DNA of 64,000 nucleotides. Source: Eledone cirrhosa. Taxonomy: Eukaryota. The stretch covers positions 11,160,001 through 11,224,000 of the forward strand of contig OZ024749.1 of NCBI GenBank assembly GCA_964016885.1. The letters run 5' to 3'. Numbering within the stretch: position 1 is the stretch's first letter; the number at the start of each line of letters is the position of its first letter. Below, one piece after another: positions 45,607 to 64,000 of this stretch. A model generated the notes under the pieces. The model did no database searches, was not told the origin of the DNA, and saw nothing but the letters and a program-made list of their open reading frames with translations. The position numbers and the translations under genes are program-made.

Positions 45607-46377
45607 CAAAATGTTTTATAAATATTTAACATAACCAAGGATAATATACCTAAACGGTTCAAGTTATCCCTGGATTTCCAACAAATTAAATATCTCTTCT
45701 ATATATACATAGTATATTTTAAATTTCATACACTTATAATGTATGTGCAACATTTTTGTTTCGGGATCCAGTTATGGCCACCATTGTCTAGGATTGGCTG
45801 CTTCTTCAATTTCGTTACTTAATTTTATTAAGTAATTAAATAGAAATTTGTTTAATAAACTTTATTCCATATTAATTAAACTAATTAAAAATTTTCACCG
45901 CGAAAATACGAAAACGTGACTGAGAATGTGTGGTTAACTTTGCAAGGTAGCACATGTTGTGAAGAAGACTGGGAAATTTGAGTTTGATGTAACATAAAAC
46001 CTTATTTTCTATATTAACTGTGGGTATGGTGTGGCGTGCGGTGGCCGGGGGGGGGGGGGGGGGGGGTGCTCAACCGGAAGGGGTATTTGAGTGCTCGACC
46101 GGAAGGGGTCTTTGACCGGAAGGATGCTCGACTGGAAGGGCCAGGAGAGGGTCTCTCTCTAGTGGTGACCAGCATACGGTGAGGACGCGTTTTGGGCAGC
46201 TCCCGGTGTTAAGCAGTCGGACGCACGTGGAAGAGGAGTACCTGCAGTGGAAGTTAGCGGCGCCTGTGAAAAGGGGTAAGTGAGATAGCTTTTTCTAACC
46301 ACAAGCTATTTCGGCGACTGAAAAAAAAAAAAGAAAAAAAAAGAAAAGAAAACACTTGCCGCAAAACAAATCAGAAG

Positions 46378-47139
46378 ATGGCGACAAGACTACGGATGAA
46401 CGAAGCTATCAGGCCATTCACCGGGGAAGGTGATGTTGTCGCTTGGCTGCGGAAGGTTCGGCTGGTCGCGGGCTTGCAGAAGATAGAAGACGTGGCCGGA
46501 CTCATTGCATTGTACCTCGAGGGTGACGCGCTGGTACTCTTCCTTGAGTTGGACGAACACAGCCAAAGAGATGTGCAGAAGATTGAGAGGCGTCTGATGG
46601 ATGCATTCGCCGAGGGACCGTTGGCGGCTTTTGCTAAGCTGGCGAGAATCAGGTGGAATGGTGAGCGCGTCGACATTTTCGCAGCGGAAATAAGGCGGTT
46701 GGCTATGTTGGCTGGTTACCAGGCGGAATGCGAACGCACGGTGCGGTTGGCGTTCATCAATGGATTTCCGGACGACATAGCGGTGAAACTGCAGCAAGTC
46801 CCGGGGTACAAGGAGATGGAAATGCGTTCACTGGTGGAACAAGCCCGGATCATAGCGGAAGATGCCAAAAAGAGTGTCGCGGCGATAGCGACTACGGAGG
46901 CTCAGGACACCTGGCAGCGAAATGGTCAAAGGGAGGCAACCTCGGCACGCGGCCGTTCGCGAGAATTTAAGGGCCGCTGTTTTAGGTGTCATGGCCCGCA
47001 TATGGCTAGAGACTGTAGAGAGTCGAAGCCGGATATAATTTGCTACCGGTGCAAGCGACCAGGCCACATCGCTACTAACTGCGACCAGGGAAACGGTCCA
47101 AGGGGAACTACTGCGCCGGTAGTTGCCCCTTACGAGTAG
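46378..47139 (+). CDS. gag: Gag with two zinc knuckles
   Basis: CFRCHGPHMARDC and CYRCKRPGHIATNC; intact 253-aa ORF. Confidence 0.9.
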   Translation: MATRLRMNEAIRPFTGEGDVVAWLRKVRLVAGLQKIEDVAGLIALYLEGDALVLFLELDEHSQRDVQKIERRLMDAFAEGPLAAFAKLARIRWNGERVDIFAAEIRRLAMLAGYQAECERTVRLAFINGFPDDIAVKLQQVPGYKEMEMRSLVEQARIIAEDAKKSVAAIATTEAQDTWQRNGQREATSARGRSREFKGRCFRCHGPHMARDCRESKPDIICYRCKRPGHIATNCDQGNGPRGTTAPVVAPYE

Positions 47140-47145
47140 CGGCGC
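47088..47145 (+). promoter_or_regulatory. -1 ribosomal frameshift signal with H-type pseudoknot
   Basis: G GGA AAC in gag frame; stem 47100-111 / 47119-131; loop gcgccg pairs with cggcgc 47140-145; the -1 frame runs into the protease. Confidence 0.85.
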
Positions 47146-49860
47146 TGCCGGTGGTGGAAGTCTTCGTGAGGGGGAAGCCACAGCGAGCCCTCGTGGATAC
47201 GGGCTGTACGACGACACTGGTGACCGCAGAGGTGGGGAGGGAGGAGCAGCGTAAGGGCAGTCGACGGCAGGAAAATTGAATGCCAAGGTCGCAGCGAGAT
47301 GGAAATAGCGGTACGGGGAAGGACGATAAGGCTTTCCGCCATCGTGGTAGACAGTGTGGTGGATGGGATCGGCGTGGTTATGGGCATGGACGCGATTGGC
47401 CGTCTAGGGGTCATCATGGTGAACAATGTCGGTGTGTCGTTTGGCGCCGCTGCATCAGTATGCGCTGTGAGTGCACGTCATGAGAACCAGAAGGCCCACG
47501 AGGGGCAATACCCCGCTTACACTGTACAGGACAAGGACTTCAAGGCTGTGTTTGATGGGCAGCGATGGGTTGTTGAGTGATACTGGAAGGGAGAACCACC
47601 AACACTGAAGACCAAAGTGGGCTGCTATCAACACACATTGAAGGGAAACGCTAGGAGCGAGTTCGAGCGAGAAGTAGAGAGATGGATCGAAGAGGGCATA
47701 CTGCTGCCCTGGAAGGAGGAGGTGAAGTGCGGAGTATTGCCGTTGATGGCGGTGGTGCAACCCACGAAGAGCAAGGTGAGGCCGGTGCTGGACTATCGAG
47801 AGCTGAACGAGCACGTGTCATGCCACACGGGTGGCGAGGTCACGGATGTCTGTGGGGAAACCCTGCGTGAGTGGAGACGCATGACGGGGGGTTCAGCGAT
47901 CGTGGATCTAAAGTCGGCTTACTTGCAGTTGCATATAGCTGAGAAGCTCTGGCGGTATCAGCTGGTCAGGTATAAGGGGCGGACATATTGCCTGACCAGG
48001 CTCGGTTTCGGGCTGAGCTCCGCACCGAAGATCATGGCGGCGGTCCTCAAGACCACTCTGGGGAGGGCCGACAAGATAAAGAGGGCTACTAACTCCTATA
48101 TTGACGACATCCTAGTGGACGAGTCGGTGGTGTCGACGGCGGAGGTCACGAGCCATTTGCGGAGGTATGGACTGACTGCGAAGCCATCAGAAGCATTGGA
48201 GGGAGGAGCCGCGCTGGGACTTAGGCTACGGCGAGATAAGACGGGCGTTTTGGTGTTCCAGAGGGGAAACGAAGTTCCGGAACTGGGCCCAAGTATGAAT
48301 AGGCGGGAGCTTTTCTCGGTGTGTGGAAAGCTGGTGGGTCACTACCCGATCGCTGGGTGGCTCCGGACGGCATGCAGCTATGTCAAGAGACGAGCGGGAG
48401 GGGTGACTTGGAGTGACAGAGTGGGAGAGAGAACGGTGGCCATGATGCAGGAGATCGTGGGGAGGGTGAAGGCCGACGACCCAGTGCGGGGACGCTGGTA
48501 CGTTCCCAAATCACGGAGCGGGACCGTATGGTGCGATGCCAGCAGCATAGCGCTGGGTGTCACGTGGGAGATAGGAGGTGTTGAGGTCGAGGATGCAGCC
48601 TGGCTTAGAAAGAAGGACGACTGCAGCCACATCAATGTGGCCGAGCTGGACGCGGTGTTGAGAGGGGTGAACCTCGCCCTGCGGTGGGGGCTGCGCACCA
48701 TCGAGATACGCACCGACTCGGCTACCGTACTCGGATGGGTAAGATCAGTGCTCACCAGTGAGAAGAGAGTGCGAACGAGAGGCGCGGCGGAGATGCTGAT
48801 AAAGCGCCGCCTGGGAACGTTAGGAGAGCTGGCCACCGAGTTCGACCTGAAGCTGAGCGTAGTGTTCGTGCCTTCAGAGAAAAATAGGGCGGACATCTTA
48901 ACTAGAGTGAAGAAAGCCTGGATGGAAGCGCCGGAGGAGGTAGAGGATGAGATAGCTGCCGTGTGTCGGCTGACCGAGTTAGACCTGAAGGGGTGGATAG
49001 GAGCCTGTTCCTAGCCAGGAGAATCGACTCGGACGTTAGCAGACACAGTTTTCGGGGGGTGGTTAGAGGCTGCGTCCTATGTCAGTCCATTGATCCCGCC
49101 CCGGGTGTACACGAAACGGGAAGCCTCCCGGTGGATCGCGACTGGAAGCGATTAGCGGTGGATGTGACGCACTACCGGCAGGGAACGTACCTCTCGATGG
49201 TCGACCGTGGACCGGGTCGAATGGCGATATGGAGGGAGATGAAGACTGGAACAGCCGAGGAAATCGTGCGGACGTTGAGAGAGGTGTTCTTGGAGCGGGG
49301 CCCTGTGGATGAACTGCTGATGGACAACAGCGCAGCGTTCCGCTCGGAGGCACTGAGGGGGATGCTCGATGGATGGAAGGTGGACCGTTTCTTCAGAGCG
49401 GCGCACAGGCCGAGCGGGAATGGAATCGTGGAGCGACACCACCGGACGATCAAGGCAATGGCGGAGCGGGGCCATATCTCACCAATGGAGGCAGTGTTCT
49501 GGTACAATATGTCCCCTCGGGTTGGACAGGTCGAGGAATCGGTGCCACACAGAGCAGTATTCAAATACGAGTGGCGGCACCCGTGCACGCCACCACAACG
49601 GCCAGTGGGGAGAGAGAGTGCATTCGTGCAGGTGGGCGAAGAAGTCTGGGTTAAGCCCCCAGATGCACGGTGCACATCTCAATGGGGAAGGGGAACGGTG
49701 ACGGCCGTAAATTCAAAGAACAATGTGTCCGTGGACGGGGTACCACGTCATGTCCTGTATCGACGGACTCCGAGGAAGAGGAAACCCAAGATGAGGTGGA
49801 AACTCAGAGCCCTGCCCCAATACTACGAAGTCGTAGACCACCGACCTGGACGGCAGACTT
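47088..49860 (+). pseudogene. pol: pol (protease, RT, RNase H, DDE integrase) with frameshifts and a stop
   Basis: ALVDTG; VDLKSAY, GFGLSSAP, YIDD; WCDAS, HINVAELDA, RTDS, NRADILT; LAVD, MDNS, NGIVER; TGA at 47578; the HH of the integrase HHCC is deleted near 48990. Confidence 0.9.
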
Positions 49861-50214
49861 TCATATGCAGAGGGACGAGGGGGAAATTGATCCTTGAGAT
49901 CAGGGGGGCGTGTGGGTATGGTGTGGCGTGCAGTGGTCGGGGGCGGGGGGAGTGCTCGACCGGAAGGGGTTTTTGAGTGCTCGACCGGAAGGGGTCTTTG
50001 ACCGGAAGGGCCAGGAGAGGGTCTCTCTCTAGTGGTGACCAGCATATGGTGAGGACGCGTTTTGGGCAGCTCCCGGTGTTAAGCAGTCGGACGCACGTGG
50101 AAGAGGAGTACCTGCAGTGGAATTTAGCGGCGCCTGTGAAAAGGGGTAAGTGAGATAGCTTTTTCTAACCACATTAACAATGTCTGTTATCTAACTAATA
50201 TTAATTACTAATGA

Positions 50215-50288
<74 letters not shown>

Positions 50289-52093
50289 GGGAATTAATTA
50301 GAGAAATAAGGGAAGGTAAAAATTCCCAACGTGACAAGACACACACCCAATTACACATTGCTACAGAAAATATTAGGGTTCCCTTCTAAATATTTTTAAT
50401 GCAAGCCAAAACATTGACGACATTGCTGCAGGTAACAATGAAACTAAGGTACTGTAATACGTACATTTATTAGTATTGTGTTATATTAACATTTTATTCC
50501 AGTTTTGTAGCTTTCGAGATGTTTGGGGGAGTCGGGCCGCTGACTGCGAGTTTCCTCTCTTCACTGGCGGCTCCCCGAATAGAGGTAACTGGTGAATATG
50601 GCGATTGCGCTTGGTTGTTCCAGCACCTCAGACTGGCCGCCACCCGAGGCAATATTGCCAGTGTGCTGGCTTGCCTCAAAACTCATTAGAGAGGTTGCTC
50701 AGTACTCCTGGCTGCTATTTTTTGCTCTGGTGTTGGTTCCGTTGTTCACCCCCTACCTTTATATTTTCTTTAATATTACAACATTAAATTAATATATCCT
50801 TCTGACAGAATCGCGAGCAATTTATAATGTTATCTAAGCATTTGTAATGTTATTTATGTATATATTTAAAACATATTTGTTATGTTATTCTACTGTAAAT
50901 TTATTTATATACATCATGTGTTTATATTTTCACTCCCATTTGTAAGGTTATTTAATATGTAACTAATAAAAATGTAGACATTACAACTAACTTTACAAAT
51001 GGGAGCCCGACTCCCCCGAAAGCCATTGTGTAATATTTTAGTAAAACCAGCCCCTAACAACGATAGAAGTTCGTTGTCAGCCCCAGATACTACAAACTTC
51101 TTCAATACAAATGTTAGTTGGTGTAATTTATCTTTACCCTTGTTTTCATGTGGTGGTATTTGTCTAGGGTCTTAAATAACATGTATCTTAGCTTTATGGT
51201 GTGTTTTTGTGGTCCCGGGTGGAATAATTTTCTCAGAAAGTCATTTCTCCGTCTCATGTCAGACTAACGAAGCTGTTTTGTTTGTTCATAGATATTCCAG
51301 ATCCCTCTTATTCCTAATTTCTCACATCTTCCAGCGGGTCCAAGAGTTGTTTTATGGATATCTATATGTATAACGGCGGCGAAGATTCGAAACTGAATCT
51401 GAGCTTTCCCGCCTCTGGGACAAACCGTGGTAAGTTGTTTACGCTCAAGAGACTAACCCCTTGGGAGAGGCTAAACACAGGTCAGAGATGTTTACGCCTG
51501 ATAGAAAATAGGTCAGAGGATATATCCATCTTTCTGACTTGTTTACGTTTGGCAAACTAATCAGTTGAGAGACTCTAACCGAAGTTCAGAGGATATATCT
51601 ATCCTTCTAACTTCAACCCTTATAAATACAGGGGTTGTTTACGCCCCGACAGAAAAGAAGTGATATACAGACAAGACAAGTGGCATTTACAAGCTCTCGT
51701 CACGAAATACCAGTCTCTCACTTATTCTCACCTGCCGGGCTGATCGCTGACTCCTGCAATACAAATAATTAAATATACTGATACACACACGCATTCATAG
51801 TAAGTTCACACTGTTTGCATCTTCACACGCACCATTTCTGTTTATTCACGTTGTATCTTTCGGATGCAGTACAAATTATATTATAATCTTATTCTGAGAT
51901 ATTTGTATTTACGTGGCTCGAAGAGCCACCAAATAATTTTACGAATATTTCGTGTTATTGATTTTATCATTCAATATTCAAATTGAATATTGTTATAATA
52001 AAATAAACATTGTAACAACACAATCCTGGTATTTTTCTTTACATCGAAACCACCATACCAACAGTTACAACCACACAAATATTCCGTTACAAC

Positions 52094-52133
52094 TGGTGAC
52101 CCCGACGTGATACGAACACGCAACCTTCTGATC
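52094..52133 (+). promoter_or_regulatory. Extended (40-nt) tRNA-Trp primer-binding site
   Basis: Reverse complement gatcagaaggttgcgtgttcgtatcacgtcggggtcacca matches the 3' half of metazoan tRNA-Trp(CCA) as I recall it. Confidence 0.9.
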
Positions 52134-54559
52134 ATCTACTACAAATGATGTCTCTAGCACACGACGATTCATCTACGGCAGAAATGGCAGTCCGGGCGGC
52201 ATTTACATTAAGAATTCCACCATTCTGGGTGCACGATCCAACACTGGTTCGCGCACATCGAACAGGATCGTTAGCGAGGCATCCCGTCTCACACATGTTA
52301 TCGGTTCGATGTCTCCGGAGATTATGAATGAGATTCGAGACCTCATTTTAGCACCACCCGGCTCTGTGTCGTATAGCACATATAAAACAACATTAAGCGG
52401 ACGTCGGAGTCGCAGCAGAAGCGCTTGCACCAGCTCCTCATATCAGAGGAATTAGGAGATAAAAAGCCGACGCAGCTCCTGGGAGAACATAAACTCCCGG
52501 ATGAAATTTTCAAGCAACTCTTCCTCCAGCGTTTGCCTTCTGCCACACAAGTTGTACTAGCATCCACCAGGGAGTCCACCACCATAGAAGAACTCGCCGA
52601 GCTGGCAGATAAGATCATGGCGGTACCACATCCGCACTCAACTTTAGCGAATGTGACGCCAGCCGTGCCTCCCACCAATCCTTTCCTTCAGCCCTCCAGT
52701 GCCACAGAGATGCCCGATCTACACCAGTTACTGGCACAGCAAGCAACACAGATACAGGCCTTGGCTCAACAAGTTCAGGCCTTGTCACTGGGCAACGCTG
52801 CCACGCGTCGGTCCGACAATCAAACTCGCCGATTTGGTGGTCGCTCAAGAAGTCCGAGCGCATCTCGGGATTCACCAGAAATGTGTTGGTACCACCAAAA
52901 ATTCGGGAGACGAGCGCAAAATGCAATCATCCTTGTTCATTTGTTGAATCAGGGAAACGACACAGCCAGAAACTGAATGCGACGGACGTTTCTGGCCCTC
53001 ATAACCAAAGTCGCCTATTTTTCATTCAGGATCGCGTCACAGGCACGCGTTTCCTGGTCGACACCGGTGCTGAAGTCAGCATCATCCCCGTTTCCTGCGT
53101 TCCTGGAAAAAAGAGAGAGACACCAGCCTGGCTCCAGGCGGTGAATCACTCACATATTCCGACCTACGGAGAACAGTCCCTGACACTAAATTTGGGACTA
53201 CGCCGCACTTTCCAGTGGGTATTCGTTGTGGCTAAGCTGCCGACCCCTATTTTAGGAGTTGACTTTCTTCAGCACTTCTCGCTGCTAGTGGACCTGAAAA
53301 ACAAACGACTCGTTGACAACTCCACTGGTCTCGCTGTGCGTGGCATAGCCGCTAGGACAGCCACAGTCAGTCCAGTCATTTCACGATCGACAACAACAAC
53401 CCGGCACAACCACATCATCAACAAATACCCAGACGTAGCTCGACCACTATTTAACACTTGCCCTGTAACCTGTAAAACATGACGTCACACACCACAAAGA
53501 CACACGGCCCACCTCTCGCTGCACGACCTAGAAGGCTACCACCAGACCGGCTGAAGTCCGTCAAACAAGAATTTCAGCACATGCTGGATCTCGGCATCAT
53601 TGGTGGTGTGATCGTCACAACAAGGGAGGCATCTCTTGCTACACATCATTGACTTTCCACAACCTACATCTCTCAGCAAACTGCGAGAATTTCTTGGCCT
53701 GGTTAACTTCTAGAGAAGATTTATACCCCACTGTGCAGAGACAGCCCAACCACTCACAGATTTGCTGCAGCAGCGTACAACCAAAAACGCAAACATCAAT
53801 CTCAACGAAAAAGAATGTACCGCTTTCGCTGAGCTGAAGAAAAGGTTGTCCGAGGCTACAATGCTGAGTTACCCCAAACCTGACGCCCCGATGTGTTTAT
53901 TGACTGATGCATCCGATTTCGGAGTTGGAGGTGTGCTTCAACAACTCTCTGGCGATATTTGGCGACCTGTATCTTTTTTCTCTAAGCGATTAAAACCCGC
54001 CGAAACTAAGTACAGCACATTCAGTCGTGAATTATTGGCAGCATACCTTGCTGTCAAGCATTTTCGACACATGCTAGAAGGTCGTGTGTTCTCCATACAC
54101 CGACCACAAACTACTAGTGTACGCGTTCAACGCCAAGCCTGACCGACACTCACCCAGGGAGGTCCGACATCTGGACTTCATTTCTCAGTACACTACTGAT
54201 ATTCGGTACATTAAGGGTGCCACCAACTCAGCAGCTGATGCCCTATCGCGCATGGAGCTTAACGCAATCCACACCACTGCCACTATCGACCTCCAGAAGA
54301 TTGCAGCGGATCAACAGAATGACGAGGAACTGCTGCAACTCCGGAAATCAACAAAGACACCCGCGAATGGGCTAGGAACTGTATCGCGTGCCAGAAGGCG
54401 AAAATTCACCGGCACCTCAAAGCCCCGATCGGTTCTTTCGCAACACCTGATGCACGGTTCCAACATGTGCACATAGACATCGTTGGACCTTTGCCTCCTT
54501 CTCACAACTACACTCATATTCTCACCTGTGTCGACCGATTTTCTCGCTGGCCAGAAGCT

Positions 54560-54917
54560 TGTAGTGACCTACATTCCGCGGGCTCACATACATTCTCTGT
54601 GCGTGATTTGGCTCAGCCAATCAGCGCCAGTAGAAGAGAATGTATCTCTACGTGCCCTGAAGGAAAAGTTCCCGCGTTGATTTGAAGAATCAGCCTCTCG
54701 CTTCCTGTCTGAAAAGGTAAACACCTAACTTTCTTTCGTCGTGAAATCACTAGCCAACATGTAACACAACAACTTAACCACGGCCTGGCAACATTTCCAC
54801 CAGTAGACCGTGCCTCCTGAATTCCTTAATTCATTCTTTCATCTCTCTTGGCATGTCAGCTATTCAGCTCAATCTTCGTAAATAAATATTGTACATACAA
54901 CCTAGTGTCTTGTCATA
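54560..54917 (+). mobile_element. Solo LTR nested in the integrase gene
   Basis: Starts TGTAGTGAC; TSD (A)AGCT on both sides; removing it restores RWPEA|[10 protein letters not shown]; AATAAA near the 3' end. Confidence 0.85.
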
Positions 54918-55127: not shown

Positions 55128-55942
55128 TGTAGCGGTTGTCTCCCTTGTTTTGATTAGGATCTAGACGGGAAGTGGAACCCTTTCTGCAACTTCCGGTCAG
55201 AGCCCTATAAAACTAACAACGTTAAGCTTCCTTCCTCTCTCTTTGCCTTTTCGGCACCAGGTCAAGAGTCTTCTCATTTGGCTCTGCCATTAATTTGGCC
55301 AACAGGCGCCTGGCTAAGGCCAGGCGCCCTCTGCCAGCCGCGTTTGCCTGGCAATCAAAACGGTAACTACTAACTTTGTTTCATTCTAACATCTATCTTT
55401 GACATGTCAAGTATTCTATCTACCGTTAATTAAATATTATATACACAAACATTGTCTCGTTTTGTTACATTCATACAACCAGTAATCTCGCTATATTGGT
55501 GACCCTGACGTGATACGAACACGCAGCCGTTCATCGCTATAAGTGGTCACCCCCAAAAAAAGAAAAAAATAGCACATCTGGTTTTGTGAGTAACATTACG
55601 AATACACGGCAAATTTAGCGACAAACTATGAAAATACTCAAGGACACGCACACACGTACATGTGGAATTCGCACAGACATACTTTTTCTCTCACGCATCA
55701 ATTAACTGTCGCATTTCACCAATATATATATATATGTTTCTCGTTTCTTACAACGAACACTTTCAAAACAAAAAAAACATTTCACGATATATATATATGT
55801 TTCTCGTTTCTTACAACGAACTCTTTCAAAACACACACAAAAAAAAAAAAAAGAAATTTGATATTCTTTAAAAAACATTTCAACAGGAACATTTATTTTC
55901 GATGAACCATTGCCTTTTGTTCTTCGTTTTCTTCATCGTTCA

Positions 55943-55974
<32 letters not shown>

Positions 55975-57247
55975 CCAAAAGTTCACACCTATAATTATGC
56001 TGATTGAAGCTTTTCTTTTTCATCATTGTCACTTTCAAAATTGCACTATCATTTTCTCGCGCGTTAGAAATATTTTTTTTCAACCTTGTATTGGCACGTG
56101 TAGGCAGCATAAATTCTCGATTCACTGAGATGTCTCTTACTCACAGACAGCCGCACGCCATTTATCACCAGGGATTCTTCAGCCTTAAGCTATATTCTTC
56201 TATTTGCCGGTTTATAAATTTACAATGTAAATTTACCGTTGATAACCGCGCATTTATTAAGAATGCTTATTTCTCTGGTCGCTGGCCTCTTGACCCTTCC
56301 AGGTCAACGCATTCTCAACATCGACCATCAACTTCGGCTGCTATTTCTAGCACTTTGCGCAACTCATTTTTTTCTAAAAAAAAAATTTTTTACTGTGAAT
56401 TTAAACACCGAATACGCTCACTCAGCGAGACAACAGCAGCAGCAACAGCAATATAACAGCAACAGCAATACATCAACACAGCTTCACCAAAGCCAGAGAA
56501 TTTATTTTTGCAGCACTCTTCCTGTGAGAAAATCCATTCGGAGGTTGGAAATTTCACGATGTACCACAGAACAGAAACCACCTGCATTCATTCTCTGGAA
56601 CACTTTCTTTCCTGCTGTCATGTGATTGCACACCTGTGAACTATATTTTGAACTTTGAGCTCTTTTATTACTTTTACTTTATTACATTGTATCTTTGGGT
56701 GATGGATAGATGGATGTCCAGTCGTTCTCTGGCCAAGAGCGGTTGGCTACCTTGATATCTATCATTGATTTTTCCAAACATTCTTTTGTCGTAATTTTCA
56801 TGCCTGTTACAACATTCTCGCCAACTTGCTACATATTTTCATTTCGATTTTTATACACTAAAATTCTGGCGGGAGGTTATGTAGCGGTTGTCTCCCTTGT
56901 TTTGATTAGGATCTAGACGGGAAGTGGAACCCTTTCTGCAACTTCCGGTCAGAGCCCTATAAAACTAACAACGTTAAGCTTCCTTCCTCTCTCTTTGCCT
57001 TTTCGGCACCAGGTCAAGAGTCTTCTCATTTGGCTCTGCCATTAATTTGGCCAACAGGCGCCTGGCTAAGGCCAGGCGCCCTCTGCCAGCCGCGTTTGCC
57101 TGGCAATCAAAACGGTAACTACTAACTTTGTTTCATTCTAACATCTATCTTTGACATGTCAAGTATTCTATCTACCGTTAATTAAATATTATATACACAA
57201 ACATTGTCTCGTTTTGTTACATTCATACAACCAGTAATCTCGCTATA
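55128..57247 (+). mobile_element. Young non-autonomous LTR element (TRIM/LARD-like) nested in the integrase gene
   Basis: 368-bp LTRs 55128-55495 and 56880-57247, identical by eye; TSD AGCA; Trp PBS 55497-55528; PPT ggcgggaggtta; removing it restores RQLKA|SIKAYED; no gag/pol inside. Confidence 0.95.
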
Positions 57248-60200
57248 AGCATCTATCAAGGCTTACGAAGACTCCACTAACTGGTTCGAATACCTCCCAC
57301 TCATTCTTCTTGGTATTCGTTCCACTATTAAGGAGGGAGTCGGACATTCTCCGGCTGAAATGGTTTGACACCGTACTCGCTCTACCCGGACAAATGATCG
57401 CTCCTGTTTCGCCACAAGAACTTCTAGACCCAACAAAATATGTGCACCGCTTACGGTCATCGATGTCGCATCTGTCTCCAGCACGTTACTTCACATATAC
57501 CAAAAGACATCGATACATGGACGCATGTTTTCGTTAGAAATGACGGTATTCCATCGAATCTTCGCCGCCATTATATATGTATATGTATATAGATATATAT
57601 GTAAATAGATATATAGATGTGTGCGTGTATATATATAAATAAATTGGTCTTAGATAATTGTTGCTAAATATTTAAAAGTGTTGTAAATTAATTTCAGTTT
57701 TTAAAGCACTTTAACCCTCGGCATGTTCGTTCTACTGGGGGGTGCGTCACATTTGAGGTTTGTCAGGTGTTTTAACAAAATGGTCGGCACTCTGGTTAAT
57801 CACCAACACTACCCCTCCACACACAATAACATCTATATTTATATATATATATATAGACTAGTCTTAAATAATCAGGTGGTCAGGCCATTATAACGTGGAA
57901 TCTTAGTTTATGTTGATGTATTCTGGGTAAACAGTTTGTTTTTAGTTCCCTTCATAATATCGTCATTAGAGGTATGTGGGTTCAATTCCTGGACTAGGTT
58001 GTGTTCTTGAGAAAACATTTTATTTTACGATGCTCCAGTATACTCAGCTGTAGACTAGCGCCCTGTCCAGGGGGTAGTCTTATATTCTTAGATGTTTCAT
58101 GCCATGGAAACCGGGGTAAGGACCGGCGTGATGAGCCTCCGAGCTTGGGACAGACTTTAGATATCATCAACCATTTGAACAGCCTTTTTTTTCTCAGACA
58201 CCACCCCTCGGGGTACCGTATTTCTAATGGAATACACAGCCTATGTGCCTCAATATTGGAAATATTGAATAATTTAATGATTTCTACTTTAGGTACAAGG
58301 CTAATAATTTGGGGTGTGGGGGAAGTCGATTAAATGAACCTCAGTACATTACTGGTACTTTATTTATCGACCACATAAGGATGAAAAGCAAAGCTAACCT
58401 CAGCGAGATTTGAATTCGGACTGTAAAGGGCCGTAACTCTGTGTTGTAAAGCATATTGTCCGACGCTCTACCGATACAGCCAATCCATAATAAAACCACC
58501 TGGCTATCGTTAACCTGTTGTGTGTGGGTCACTTAATCTGGATGGAGATCACCTTTGTTGTTCTTCCTCTACCAGATCCAGCTGGAATTCCTCCGCTATT
58601 GTCTTTAGTACTTTGGTCTTGTTCCACCCAGTTACTCAGAGATATTTCATGAGATTGTAGGCAGATATTTCTCCCAACCCTCTCCCTCCAGGACTGTGAC
58701 AGGGAAACCTACTTTTTAAAGAACTTTCTCCTGTATGTCTGTCATTCTCGTAATCATAGCTGTTAACAGATCGATATCGATTAACGGCATGACGACCTTC
58801 CCGCTCCGTAAGACTAGGATGTCATACGTTGTGACAACATTGTGTGTTCAGTGACCAGGCCAGACTTTGCTGCTCGTCATGTCAAAGTATCGGCCACCAT
58901 GTTTGTGATTGAGATTTTGGCAGTGGAGAATTCCAGTGTTCTTGTCCCCCGCCTGACCAAGTCCCCCTTTGCACGGCTATCGGAGGGGGGTTAGCTACCC
59001 ACACGTGTGAGCCCCGTGAGGTGCAGTGGTTGTTTCAGTATGTCTCCCTTGCCTTCCTCCCTAGCTCCAGAACCACAAGACCCTTAAGTTTCATCTATGG
59101 TGGGGGCATGTAGAATATATTTATTTAAACACTATTGTTATTTTAATAAAAAATGAAAAACCTATGTGTTTGTTTTTTATTCACAAAATTAATAAAAAAT
59201 GAAGCACCTATGTGTTTGTTCACAAAATTAATGTTGAAAATAAACAATAAAATGCAGGGATTTAATAATAAAATTCAATATGTTCATAATGATATTTTCC
59301 ATAATTCCACTCTTGCGTCATATCAATCAACTTAGTCCCAGAATTCTTGTTCTACATTCATCTACAACCCCACCTTCACAATGTTACAAGCTTTACAGAA
59401 ACTCTTGCTAAATGGTTTAACAATGGACAATAGCAGCTTTCTGAAAGGTAACGTAGATTTTTATATTACGTTGAGATATTTCTGTAAATCTTTCCCTCTT
59501 AGTCTCCTTCGTATGATCTACTATTTACACCCACCTAGTTGTTCTCTTGTTAACGTATTCTTAATTAAATACACACTCACCTGTTTCAATACATTGCGAA
59601 TATACAGTATATTAAATTTATATTTTTTCTTAATAAATATGTATCTAAGTGTAGTTTAAAAATTGTTCCTACTTCTTCCTGGGGTAGTTCCTTTTGTCTT
59701 TATCAAATCCTTCTGTCGACTAATTCTCCCTATCACTGCGTGGTTGTCTTCCTCTCAAGATCTAACTCACTAACAGCAATCGAACATGGTAGTTTCGATT
59801 GTTGACTTTTCCAAAAGCTGCCCACCGCTTGTAATCTTTCTGAGGTACACGCAATAAATCCAGCTGGTCACCATCTATGTTTTAAACCCTCTTTCTCCCA
59901 TTTGACTCTCCCGTATTTAATTCTATACACCTATTTTGTTTTCATCTTAACTGTGTGTGAAACTTCAGTAATTCTTCCCATAGTGGTGACACTGTTGGAA
60001 CTTCCATTCCTGGATCGTGTTGTGTTCTTGAGAAAAACACTTCATTCCACTCTGAGTACCAGCAGTATCTTGGGGTTTAACCCTGCCATAGACTGGTGCC
60101 GTAACCAATCGAAAGTTTTGTTTTCGTCTTAGCCCAAGAAGTGTTGATTATTTTGTCAGACACTGGACCATTTTTACTTGTTGGTAATACATACACACTG

Positions 60201-61799: not shown

Positions 61800-64000
61800 G
61801 TTAAGAGACAGGCCTAACCTTTTATAAGCTGCCGTATGGAGGGACAGCTACCGCAATATACTGTATATCAGGGGCATTAAAATACAGACCCATTGTTATA
61901 TTACATGTAACTGGGGCGACAGCTAACACTGTATAACAGTGATGTTAAAAGAGAAGCCCACCCATAGCTGTAACTGTGGGATGTAGAGAGGTGCAGCTAA
62001 CCCAATATACTGTATATGAGGGACGTTAAAAGAGAGAGTCAAACAGGCCTAATATTAGATGTTACAGCTGATGTGTGGAGGGACAGCTACGGCAATATAC
62101 TCTATATCTGGGACGTTAAAAGACAAACACACCCTTATATTAGAAGGGACACCTACCACAATATACTGTATATCAGGTGTTAAAAGACAGACCCATCTAG
62201 AGTTATAACTATAGACCGTATGGAGGGGTAGCTATTACAATATACTATATAACAGGGACGTTAAAAGACAGACACATCCTTACATTAAATGTAATTGTGG
62301 GTTGTAAGTATAGACAGACCAAACATTATATTAGATGTAACAGTGAGCCGTATGGAGGGACAGCTACCACAATATACTGTATATCAGGGACGTTAAAATA
62401 TAGGCCCATCTTTAGATATAACTATAGACCATATGGAGGGGTAGCTATTACATTATACTGTATATCAGGGACGTTATAAGACAGGTCTCCTTATATTCGA
62501 TGTCTGTATATCAGGGACGTTATAAGACAGGTCCACATTTTTATAAGCTGCAACTATGGGCCGAATGGAGTGAGAGACAGACACATTATATTAGATGTAA
62601 TTACCACACCACAATCTACTGTATATCTAGGACGTTAAAAGACAGACACATCCTTATATTAGATGTAATTGTGGGTTGTCTAAGAATGTAGTAACCATCA
62701 AGGGTTCTAAGTATCAAGGAAGTATCTAAGGTTCGAATTCAACTGTCTTCCAAGAATCTAATTAACCATCAAGGGTTCTAAGTATCAAAAATGTAATAAG
62801 AACCTTCAAGTATGTAAATAAAGTATCTCAGGTTGTATGGATAGACTGACAGACCTAACATTATATTAGATGTAACTGTGGGCCGTTATATATATCTACC
62901 TCGATATCTCATCAGATATGTGCAAAAACGCCGCATGTAACTTTAATTGTGGGCCGTAATGGGGAACAGCTAACACTGTATAACGGACGTTAAAAGAGAG
63001 GCCCATCCATAGATGTAACTGTGGGATGTAGAGAGGAGCAGCTAACACAATAGACTGTATATGAAGGACGTTAAAGGACAGATCCAGCCTTAGATGTAAC
63101 TGTGAGCCGTATGGAGGGAGAGCTAATACAATGTACTGTATAACAGGGACATTAAAAGACAGAGACAAACAGACCTTATATTAGATGTAACAGCTGATGT
63201 ATGGAGGGACAGCTACCGCAATATACTGTATATCAGCTGTTAAAAGACAGGCTCATCTTTAGATATAACTATAGACCATATGGTGGGGTAGCTATTACAA
63301 TATACTATATATCAGGGACGTTAAAAGACAGGCCCATCTTTAGATATAACTATAGACCGTATGGAGGGGTAGCTATTACAATCTACTGTATATCTGGGAC
63401 TTTAAAAGACAGACACATCTTTACATTAGATGTAATTGTGGGTTGTAAGTATAGACAGACAGACCCAACATTATATTAGATGTAACAGTGGGCCGTTAAG
63501 GGACAAACCCATACTTAGATGTAACTGCAGCCGTATGGAGAGGCAGCTACCACAATATACTGTATATCAGGACTGTTAAAAGACAGACCCATTCTTATAT
63601 TAGATGTAATTGTGGGATATACAGAGGGGCTGCCACAACTGTATATCAGGGACATTTAAAGACAGGTTCACCTTTTTATAAGCTGCAACTGTGGGCCGTG
63701 TGGAGTGAGGGACAGATGTAATTATGGGTCGTATAAAGGGGCAGCTACCACAATACACTGTATATAAGACAGACCTAGCCTTACATTAGATGTAACAGCT
63801 GCCGTATAGAGGGACAGCTACCACAATATACTGTATATAAGACAGACCTAGCCTTACATTAGATGTAACAGCTGCCGTATAAAGGGACAGCTACCACAAT
63901 ATACTGTATATAAGACAGACCTAGCCTTACATTAGATGTAACAGCTACCACAATATACTGTATATAAGACAGACCTAGCCTTACATTAGATGTAACAGCT
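61800..64000 (+). repeat. Diverged ~73-bp satellite, more homogeneous toward the window end
   Basis: Unit ttagatgtaac..ccgtatggagggacagctaccacaatatactgtatatcagggacgttaaaagacag; period 73 at 63761/63834/63907. Confidence 0.9.

Follow-up and report, generated by a model that had tools for sequence, protein, structure and literature searches.

Probable overruns of a tRNA-Trp primer past position 58, and a candidate split primer site, in CsRn1-like elements of an octopus

We analysed a 64,000-nt stretch of the Eledone cirrhosa genome (the window), which carries an outer, broken CsRn1-like gypsy element with a primer site starting at 52094; this element is called the window copy below. Nucleotide n of a primer site (nt n) faces tRNA position 77-n. 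The features needed for the argument are listed here in window coordinates.

51367..52091, + strand: outer CsRn1-like gypsy element, 5′ LTR, whose start is approximate and whose last bases are ...TTACA
52094..52104, + strand: primer-binding site (PBS) core, nt 1–11, antisense to tRNA-Trp 76–66; common to the family default
52103..52120, + strand: nt 10–27, tRNA-perfect in the window copy; the family default is 3 nt shorter and substituted; probably rewritten from tRNA
52112..52112, + strand: nt 19, opposite tRNA A58; A, where intact host genes predict T; same base as in the outer-element family
52116..52132, + strand: distal box, nt 23–39, antisense to tRNA 54–38; kept by the family default
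52133..52133, + strand: nt 40, opposite G37; C in the window copy, C or T by subfamily in the family
52148..52976, + strand: gag remnant in several frames; N-terminal DUF7041 (PF23055); CX2HX9CX3C (CHCC) residues over two frames
52934..54556, + strand: pol remnant; protease PF00077, RNase H PF17919 and PF17917, zinc-binding part of integrase PF17921 (weak)
54560..54917, + strand: 358-bp LTR-like insertion in the integrase region; 4-bp duplication at its flanks
55128..57247, + strand: nested non-coding LTR element; 4-bp duplication; purine tract before its 3′ LTR
55497..55528, + strand: PBS of the nested element, antisense to tRNA-Trp to nt 32, with A at nt 19

Homology between the window LTR and the other family copies starts near 51363–51365, and 2 nt separate the LTR end (52091) from the primer site (52094). 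The copy is broken: its CHCC residues are present but split between the ORFs 52386–52976 and 52613–53482, and most of the reverse transcriptase (RT) is missing or broken. The protease, RNase H and integrase matches follow the PR-RT-RH-IN order, with RT itself undetected by the domain search. The outer element ends near 57570; its 3′ LTR was not found within the window, and no GPY/F motif was seen in three frames. The 4-bp duplications seen are those of the nested element and the LTR-like insertion. The CsRn1 clade is described, in the accessible part of PMC2582038, by a tRNA-Trp PBS, a CHCC Gag motif and 4-bp target-site duplications, and the outer element fits this clade when its PBS, Gag motif and domain order are judged against that description. 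Elsewhere in the window, 46130–50173 holds a different gypsy-like element with 174-bp LTRs and no recognisable tRNA-like site after its 5′ LTR, and 61800–64000 holds a degenerate tandem repeat with a unit of about 73–81 bp.

In window 52094–52133 we found the antisense of mature tRNA-Trp(CCA) over its 3′-terminal 40 nt, positions 76→37. A sequence-only reading of this DNA had reported such a 40-nt complementarity with A at nt 19, and the host genes confirm it; the match stops after nt 40, and the end given in that reading (52150) overshoots by 17 nt. Compared to any single host tRNA-Trp gene, the site mismatches at nt 19 and at one isodecoder site, which is nt 20 against an A57/T47 gene (L003) and nt 30 against a G57/C47 gene (L080). 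The exact 20-mer 52114–52133 has five matches in the 3.0-Gb genome, while its reversed control has none; the site is therefore not a product of chance. These matches are three tRNA genes, the window site and one unrelated LTR junction that runs to nt 41 with T19. Rfam and ARAGORN gave no match at the primer site. Within it, the distal box covers the T-stem 5′ strand, the variable loop and the anticodon-stem 3′ strand of tRNA-Trp. A length of 40 nt departs from the usual description of a CsRn1 PBS, whose published form is 12 nt (PMC2582038, accessible part).

The window copy by itself says less about tRNA modification than had been claimed. The sequence-only reading took A19 and C40 as records of m1A58 and G37, and both turn out to equal family states. 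Since A19, A30 and C40 are all states of the copy's own family, rewriting can be inferred for nt 10–27 only; subfamilies differ at nt 40, with either C or T, and a stop at position 37 is therefore not readable from this copy alone. Its A19 may have arisen by misincorporation opposite m1A58, by inheritance or from a nested-family donor.

A census of the outer-element family through LTR-end and leader anchors returned 105 copies, 100 of them listed. Among the 100 listed copies, 92 have a split site (nt 1–11, a short substituted middle, and nt 23–39 with one mismatch), six are tRNA-perfect, and the remaining two, nearly identical to each other, have a restored match of just 18 nt. L403 is a seventh tRNA-perfect copy and L213 a second 18-nt restoration event. 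Most progeny of the family keep the parental site, and the proposal that the lineage had fixed a 40-nt copy finds no support in a family with 92 split, diverged sites. Among these 92, 26 look alike and share the same 1-nt box deletion, on contigs C16, C19, C20, C23 and C27; on C20 the look-alike copies lie about 100–200 kb apart. They may have spread inside a larger repeat as passengers.

We built family trees from LTR and gag sequence with the PBS zone excluded and no outgroup, so that they are unrooted. The tree with five perfect copies held 52 of 63 rows, 11 being omitted for low cover, and a single clade of the five was rejected (p-AU 1.75e-11). In the tree with all seven (78 of 84 rows), the perfect copies need seven changes, at least five of them forced by starred branches, and the three perfect copies with A19 do not form one clade (p-AU 1.25e-05). 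The nearest tree rows of the window copy are split copies, at 96%. At nt 19 the perfect copies have T in four cases and A in three, and three of them (L159, L174 and L212) carry at nt 30 not the family's A but G, as the commoner isodecoder of the host (C47) would give; G30 also occurs in two split copies. Because the perfect copies are scattered among split sisters and three have another isodecoder's base, each was likely rewritten from tRNA. Perfect copies of the T subfamily keep T at nt 40, and the rewritten tract therefore ends at or before nt 39.

The converse history, in which a perfect 39–40-nt site is ancestral, survives in a handful of copies and has decayed in the rest, seems to us scarcely credible. 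A diverged pair (L402 and L409) has tRNA-like bases at nt 20–26 together with A19, indicating that an older, better match existed, and change counts on unrooted trees give no direction. Under this history, however, the same multi-site split haplotype must have arisen repeatedly in nested starred clades, the rejection of a single clade stands against it, and the perfect copies are not uniform at nt 19 or at the isodecoder site nt 30. We take the split default as the starting state, because an identical multi-site split haplotype is unlikely to recur often.

The nested element offers another possible donor of the rewritten middle. Its two LTRs (55128–55495 and 56880–57247) are identical and 368 bp long, and its family, of about 100 or more copies, has A19/C20 fixed family-wide. 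At 55497–55550 and at other nested-family loci, a 32-nt tRNA copy is followed by an LTR-end repeat and then by a short second PBS-like site, and this tandem LTR-end/PBS junction is fixed in the high-copy family. The middle of the window copy could thus have come from a template switch to co-packaged nested-family RNA rather than from tRNA. The nested family is abundant, one member is nested inside the window copy itself, and it matches the window copy over nt 1–29, A19/C20 included. A19 with C20 is also over-represented in the perfect family copies (3 of 7) and absent as a pairing from other families' one-off events; inheritance or a non-tRNA donor is therefore possible for it. We nevertheless consider a template switch unlikely. 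It cannot yield the T19/G30 copies L159, L174 and L212, which match the tRNA to nt 40, the two families differ in LTR ends and downstream sequence and share only the PBS, and the nested donor's own extension would still need an origin in tRNA read-through.

Sites that match the tRNA beyond nt 18 also occur outside the family. The 18-nt site is matched at 470 genome sites, 170 of which extend to nt 28; the first 100 of these listed, and 30 fetched, are mostly nested family. A position-neutral search (nt 1–35 with at most 2 mismatches) gave 45 sites and, after one tRNA gene and one hairpin arm were removed, 43 events. We found that nt 19, which faces tRNA position 58, is mismatched in 11 of the 43 (A in six, G in three, C in two) and takes 11 of all 46 mismatches (binomial p 5e-8). 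Transversions make up 9 of these 11 mismatches, compared to 6 of 29 elsewhere (p 0.0007). The next most mismatched nucleotides are nt 28 (5), nt 13 (4) and nt 34 (4). The five mismatches at nt 28 (tRNA G49) are all C to T, and this is not a CpG site. Excluding the outer-element family's own two A19 copies leaves 9 of 41 events mismatched at nt 19, and further excluding three that a variant gene could have templated leaves 6 of 38.

The correct T19 is present in 32 of the 43 events, and the suggestion that the RT bypasses m1A58 as a rule is not supported; a hypomodified primer would fit these events as well. A wrong base at nt 19 occurs in 8 of 15 events with T20 (A57) and in 3 of 28 with C20 (G57) (p 0.004), a contrast that is a lead only because nt 20 is also a CpG site; nt 20 was not used alone as an isodecoder marker. 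Most host tRNA-Trp genes are A57/C47; G57/C47 genes and a small number of T47 copies also occur. The anticodon-arm 17-mer occurs at 76 genome sites, most of which are genes in arrays; one tandem array (G000:C4:353394000-353490000) comprises some 55 tRNA-Trp genes and pseudogenes, nearly all A57. Among the read-through fossils, in contrast to this array, the rarer G57 type predominates (28 of 43).

The ends of the events are also uneven. For the 37 non-family events, which entered the set only if they matched to about nt 33, ends fall at nt 33–36 (7), nt 37–42 (23, mode 39) and nt 48–50 (7), with none at nt 43–47 or above 50; the gap at nt 43–47 has p 1.8e-6 if ends were uniform over nt 37–50. 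Nt 39 lies just before G37, nt 42 before C34 and nt 50 before G26, all of which we take to be commonly modified in eukaryotic tRNA-Trp. Among 12 copies reaching at least nt 45 (seven from this genome and five metagenomic, with at most 3 mismatches allowed), three mismatch at nt 40 and one elsewhere in nt 36–44 (p 0.005). Errors at position 58 and ends near position 37 are thus real at the population level, and the idea that the extension is primer tRNA copied past position 58 draws support from both the scattered perfect copies and the genome-wide events. Support for the overrun is stronger at this population level than from the two window-copy bases named in the sequence-only reading.

An explanation free of modification effects would be conversion by a tRNA-Trp gene, or priming by a T58 variant, either of which could produce the extension and A19. 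About 76 tRNA-Trp-like copies exist, and a search for a non-A base at position 58 gave four matches, of which three are LTR junctions and the fourth is an array gene with T58. A host gene of the kind that would undercut the modification reading therefore exists, but this single copy is A57/C47, has a D-stem change and differs from the window copy at nt 20 and 30. It could have templated the three A19 events that have T20 and G30. G or C at nt 19 (5 of 43 events), in contrast, has no counterpart among the four non-A58 matches. Gene conversion would give neither tract ends at nt 37–42 and 48–50 nor the mismatches at nt 40, and every event begins with the complement of the post-transcriptional CCA beside an LTR end. 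We regard this explanation as very improbable.

The non-family events look like captured dead-end products, and are therefore uninformative on how often overruns occur in normal replication. Scanning around 38 non-family rows with the outer-element family's queries, we found gag/pol downstream in 7, whereas in 31 roughly 1.5 kb of sequence to each side held none; several events continue into an LTR-end repeat or fold back on the LTR. An apparent placement of several one-off events at 3′ LTRs was an artefact, as the integrase query frame ran into an LTR insertion, and a trimmed query found no pol upstream of the events. At L280:2000-2090 (G000:C10 near 53056950), a perfect hairpin insertion consists of an LTR end, a 50-nt tRNA copy and an inverted LTR end, with A at nt 19 in both arms. 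L161 and L210 share the same nt 33 junction and downstream sequence, with C and A, respectively, at nt 19. Twelve metagenome contigs, picked by the pattern to nt 32 and including two duplicates and one near-complete tRNA copy, carry a like junction with T (8), C (2), G (1) or A (1) at nt 19; in one contig (L237) the antisense tRNA-Trp spans at least 69 nt, including the CCA complement, a near-complete copy of the mature tRNA. A genome-wide tRNA search for a comparison primer gave 16 loci, most of which are tRNA-Thr or belong to a SINE-like family; no other primer tRNA emerged when the fetched loci were scanned generically. L419 and L421–L429 are dispersed tRNA-like copies that share one body but differ in anticodon (Ala, Val, Thr and Asp calls), probably a SINE head.

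Taken with the family trees, these observations make it probable that a tRNA overrun landing on the distal box overwrote the middle of the window copy's site with tRNA sequence. Plus-strand synthesis would run past tRNA position 58 towards position 38, the over-long strand would anneal by its 3′ end to the distal box (nt 23–39), and the middle of the primer site would be overwritten with tRNA sequence after landing. Errors and ends would be caused by m1A58, modified G37 and modified G26, the names that we presume for the modifications at tRNA-Trp positions 58, 37 and 26. In families or events that lack a flush landing, the overrun appears to have been captured as an LTR standing alone and tailed by tRNA sequence, as a fold-back or as a deletion. 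In the outer-element family, a strand stopped at 18 nt would be mismatched at its 3′ end, whereas one of some 39 nt would finish in a 17-nt box match, which would explain the seven flush perfect copies compared to two short restorations.

The distal box recurs in related elements. Of 150 listed loci with the Gag N-terminal domain, we fetched 90, and 67 of these have a PBS within 500 nt; distal complementarity is present in 64 of the 67 (weak in four) and absent in three. Another LTR family has a core at nt 1–15 and a box at nt 25–36 in 16 of 30 unselected loci, and by eye L162 looks like a flush rewrite in a second family. Across groups, the core is 9–15 nt, the middle is diverged and the box reaches tRNA position 38–45. 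We compared the predicted duplex energy of one real copy per group with the host tRNA against 300 shuffles of the sequence beyond the core: the real copy is beaten by 0, 0, 0 and 1 of 300 shuffles in four groups, and by 17 and 16 of 300 in two groups, where its advantage is weak. The predicted pairing energy is -47 kcal/mol with the box and -22 kcal/mol without it. Mismatches are more frequent in nt 12–22 (25/66) than in nt 23–36 (17/84; p 0.027, six groups), a contrast absent in one group. Based on these comparisons, most CsRn1-like groups appear to have a distal box, which would make a 39-nt overrun productive.

We tentatively propose that CsRn1-type elements use a selected split primer site, comprising a core and a distal box that skips the T loop. 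Such a site would bind the whole tRNA-Trp strongly, escape 3′ tRNA fragments of 18–22 nt and make the 39-nt overrun a working strand-transfer intermediate; the copies would then be a dated, isodecoder-resolved germ-line record of modification at positions 58, 37 and 26, including the A57/G57 difference. To a similar, limited degree we entertain the view that the box is a neutral relic of old overruns, outlasting the middle only because strand transfer close to the position-58 stop makes errors, or that it serves primer annealing only, with landing as a by-product. The modest contrast between middle and box, its absence in one group and the two groups that are weak against shuffles would suit this view, and the groups may share one ancestral capture. 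Set against it, groups that have diverged in the middle and in the adjacent leader still have the box, its presence about doubles the predicted pairing, and in the outer-element family perfect copies outnumber 18-nt restorations by 7:2 events.

Read-through biochemistry is already known from HIV and other retroviruses. To our knowledge, plus-strand strong-stop ends and primer inheritance have been established only for a few retroviruses and for yeast Ty1/Ty3; Pulsinelli and Temin, and Colicelli and Goff, reportedly saw retroviral tRNA sequence captured through late plus-strand termination. What is new here is the population signature of overruns, together with a distal box in most CsRn1-like groups. 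The literature searched, which lay outside Repbase, subscription journals and one supplementary image, contained no extended or split CsRn1 PBS and no genomic m1A58 fossils, and two supplementary text files of PMC3630058 did not contain the PBS sequence. Genome sequence alone would thus record overruns turned into germ-line insertions, their errors and ends falling where modifications are expected, along with a candidate for a long landing box. If this is true, the annotation of gypsy primer sites is incomplete and should include a short core and a distal box, the trade-off of priming against silencing gains a testable structural solution, and tRNA modification becomes readable from transposon fossils in animals without tRNA-seq.

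The following comparisons draw on the accessible parts of the papers cited. A mismatch at position 58 is described as the reverse-transcription signature of m1A58 (PMC4787781), and our events show the same excess (11/43, p 5e-8). The CsRn1 clade resembles the outer element in its tRNA-Trp site, the published 12-nt form of which is the start of the family default, and in its CHCC Gag motif and LTR ends in ATA/AAA, while the clade's 4-bp duplications recur at the nested element and the LTR-like insertion; the accessible description gives the 12-nt core only, without a distal box or tRNA rewriting, and its PBS alignment may show more (PMC2582038). Helenus/Ajax elements, which have tRNA-like sequence inside their LTRs (PMC10886601), and a Twin SINE at one PBS (PMC3286476) are different phenomena.

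In mouse ETn/MusD elements, as here, the commonest PBS is imperfect, and perfect ones are scattered over the tree and proposed to be primer-copied (PMC7472051). Their reversion is limited to 18 nt and, according to the authors, does not match modification sites, whereas CsRn1-like reversion passes nt 18 with errors on positions 58 and 37. Mouse ERVs have been proposed to evade 3′ tRNA fragments in this way (PMC7472051), and we hypothesise the same for the split CsRn1-like site.

Ty1, Ty3 and Drosophila Gypsy also have bipartite sites, with a short core and a second segment that pairs with other tRNA arms (PMC5371799, PMC1635307). Their second site was shown biochemically, whereas the CsRn1-like pairing is predicted only, and the CsRn1-like second segment differs in being colinear with the tRNA and 8–12 nt downstream. 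Primer sequence is not inherited in Ty1 and Ty3 (PMC5371799), and most progeny of the outer-element family likewise keep the parental site, although tRNA sequence is occasionally inherited there.

The closest parallel comes from lentiviruses. The standard scheme has plus-strand synthesis halting ahead of m1A58, with any overrun unable to pair with the minus strand (PMC8599865). The over-extended strong-stop DNA of HIV-1 (P3–P5) likewise arises when RT copies past m1A58, with minor stops at 55, 54 and 37, the first two of which are rescued by a short over-extension sequence (PMC13191261). This downstream genomic complementarity lets transfer of the overrun happen (PMC13191261, PMC8599865), and complementarity beyond position 58 downstream of the PBS is likewise present in our family default, as box nt 23–39. 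The lentiviral sequence is about 4 nt long, abuts a full 18-nt PBS and ends at position 54/55 (PMC13191261); the box of the outer-element family covers tRNA 54–38, and across CsRn1-like groups a core of 9–15 nt is combined with a box reaching 38–45. The HIV product ending at position 37 is called non-productive (PMC13191261), whereas octopus flush copies to at least nt 27–30 have integrated in the germ line, and these flush, tRNA-perfect copies would be an indirect sign that over-extended strong-stop DNA is transferred via the box.
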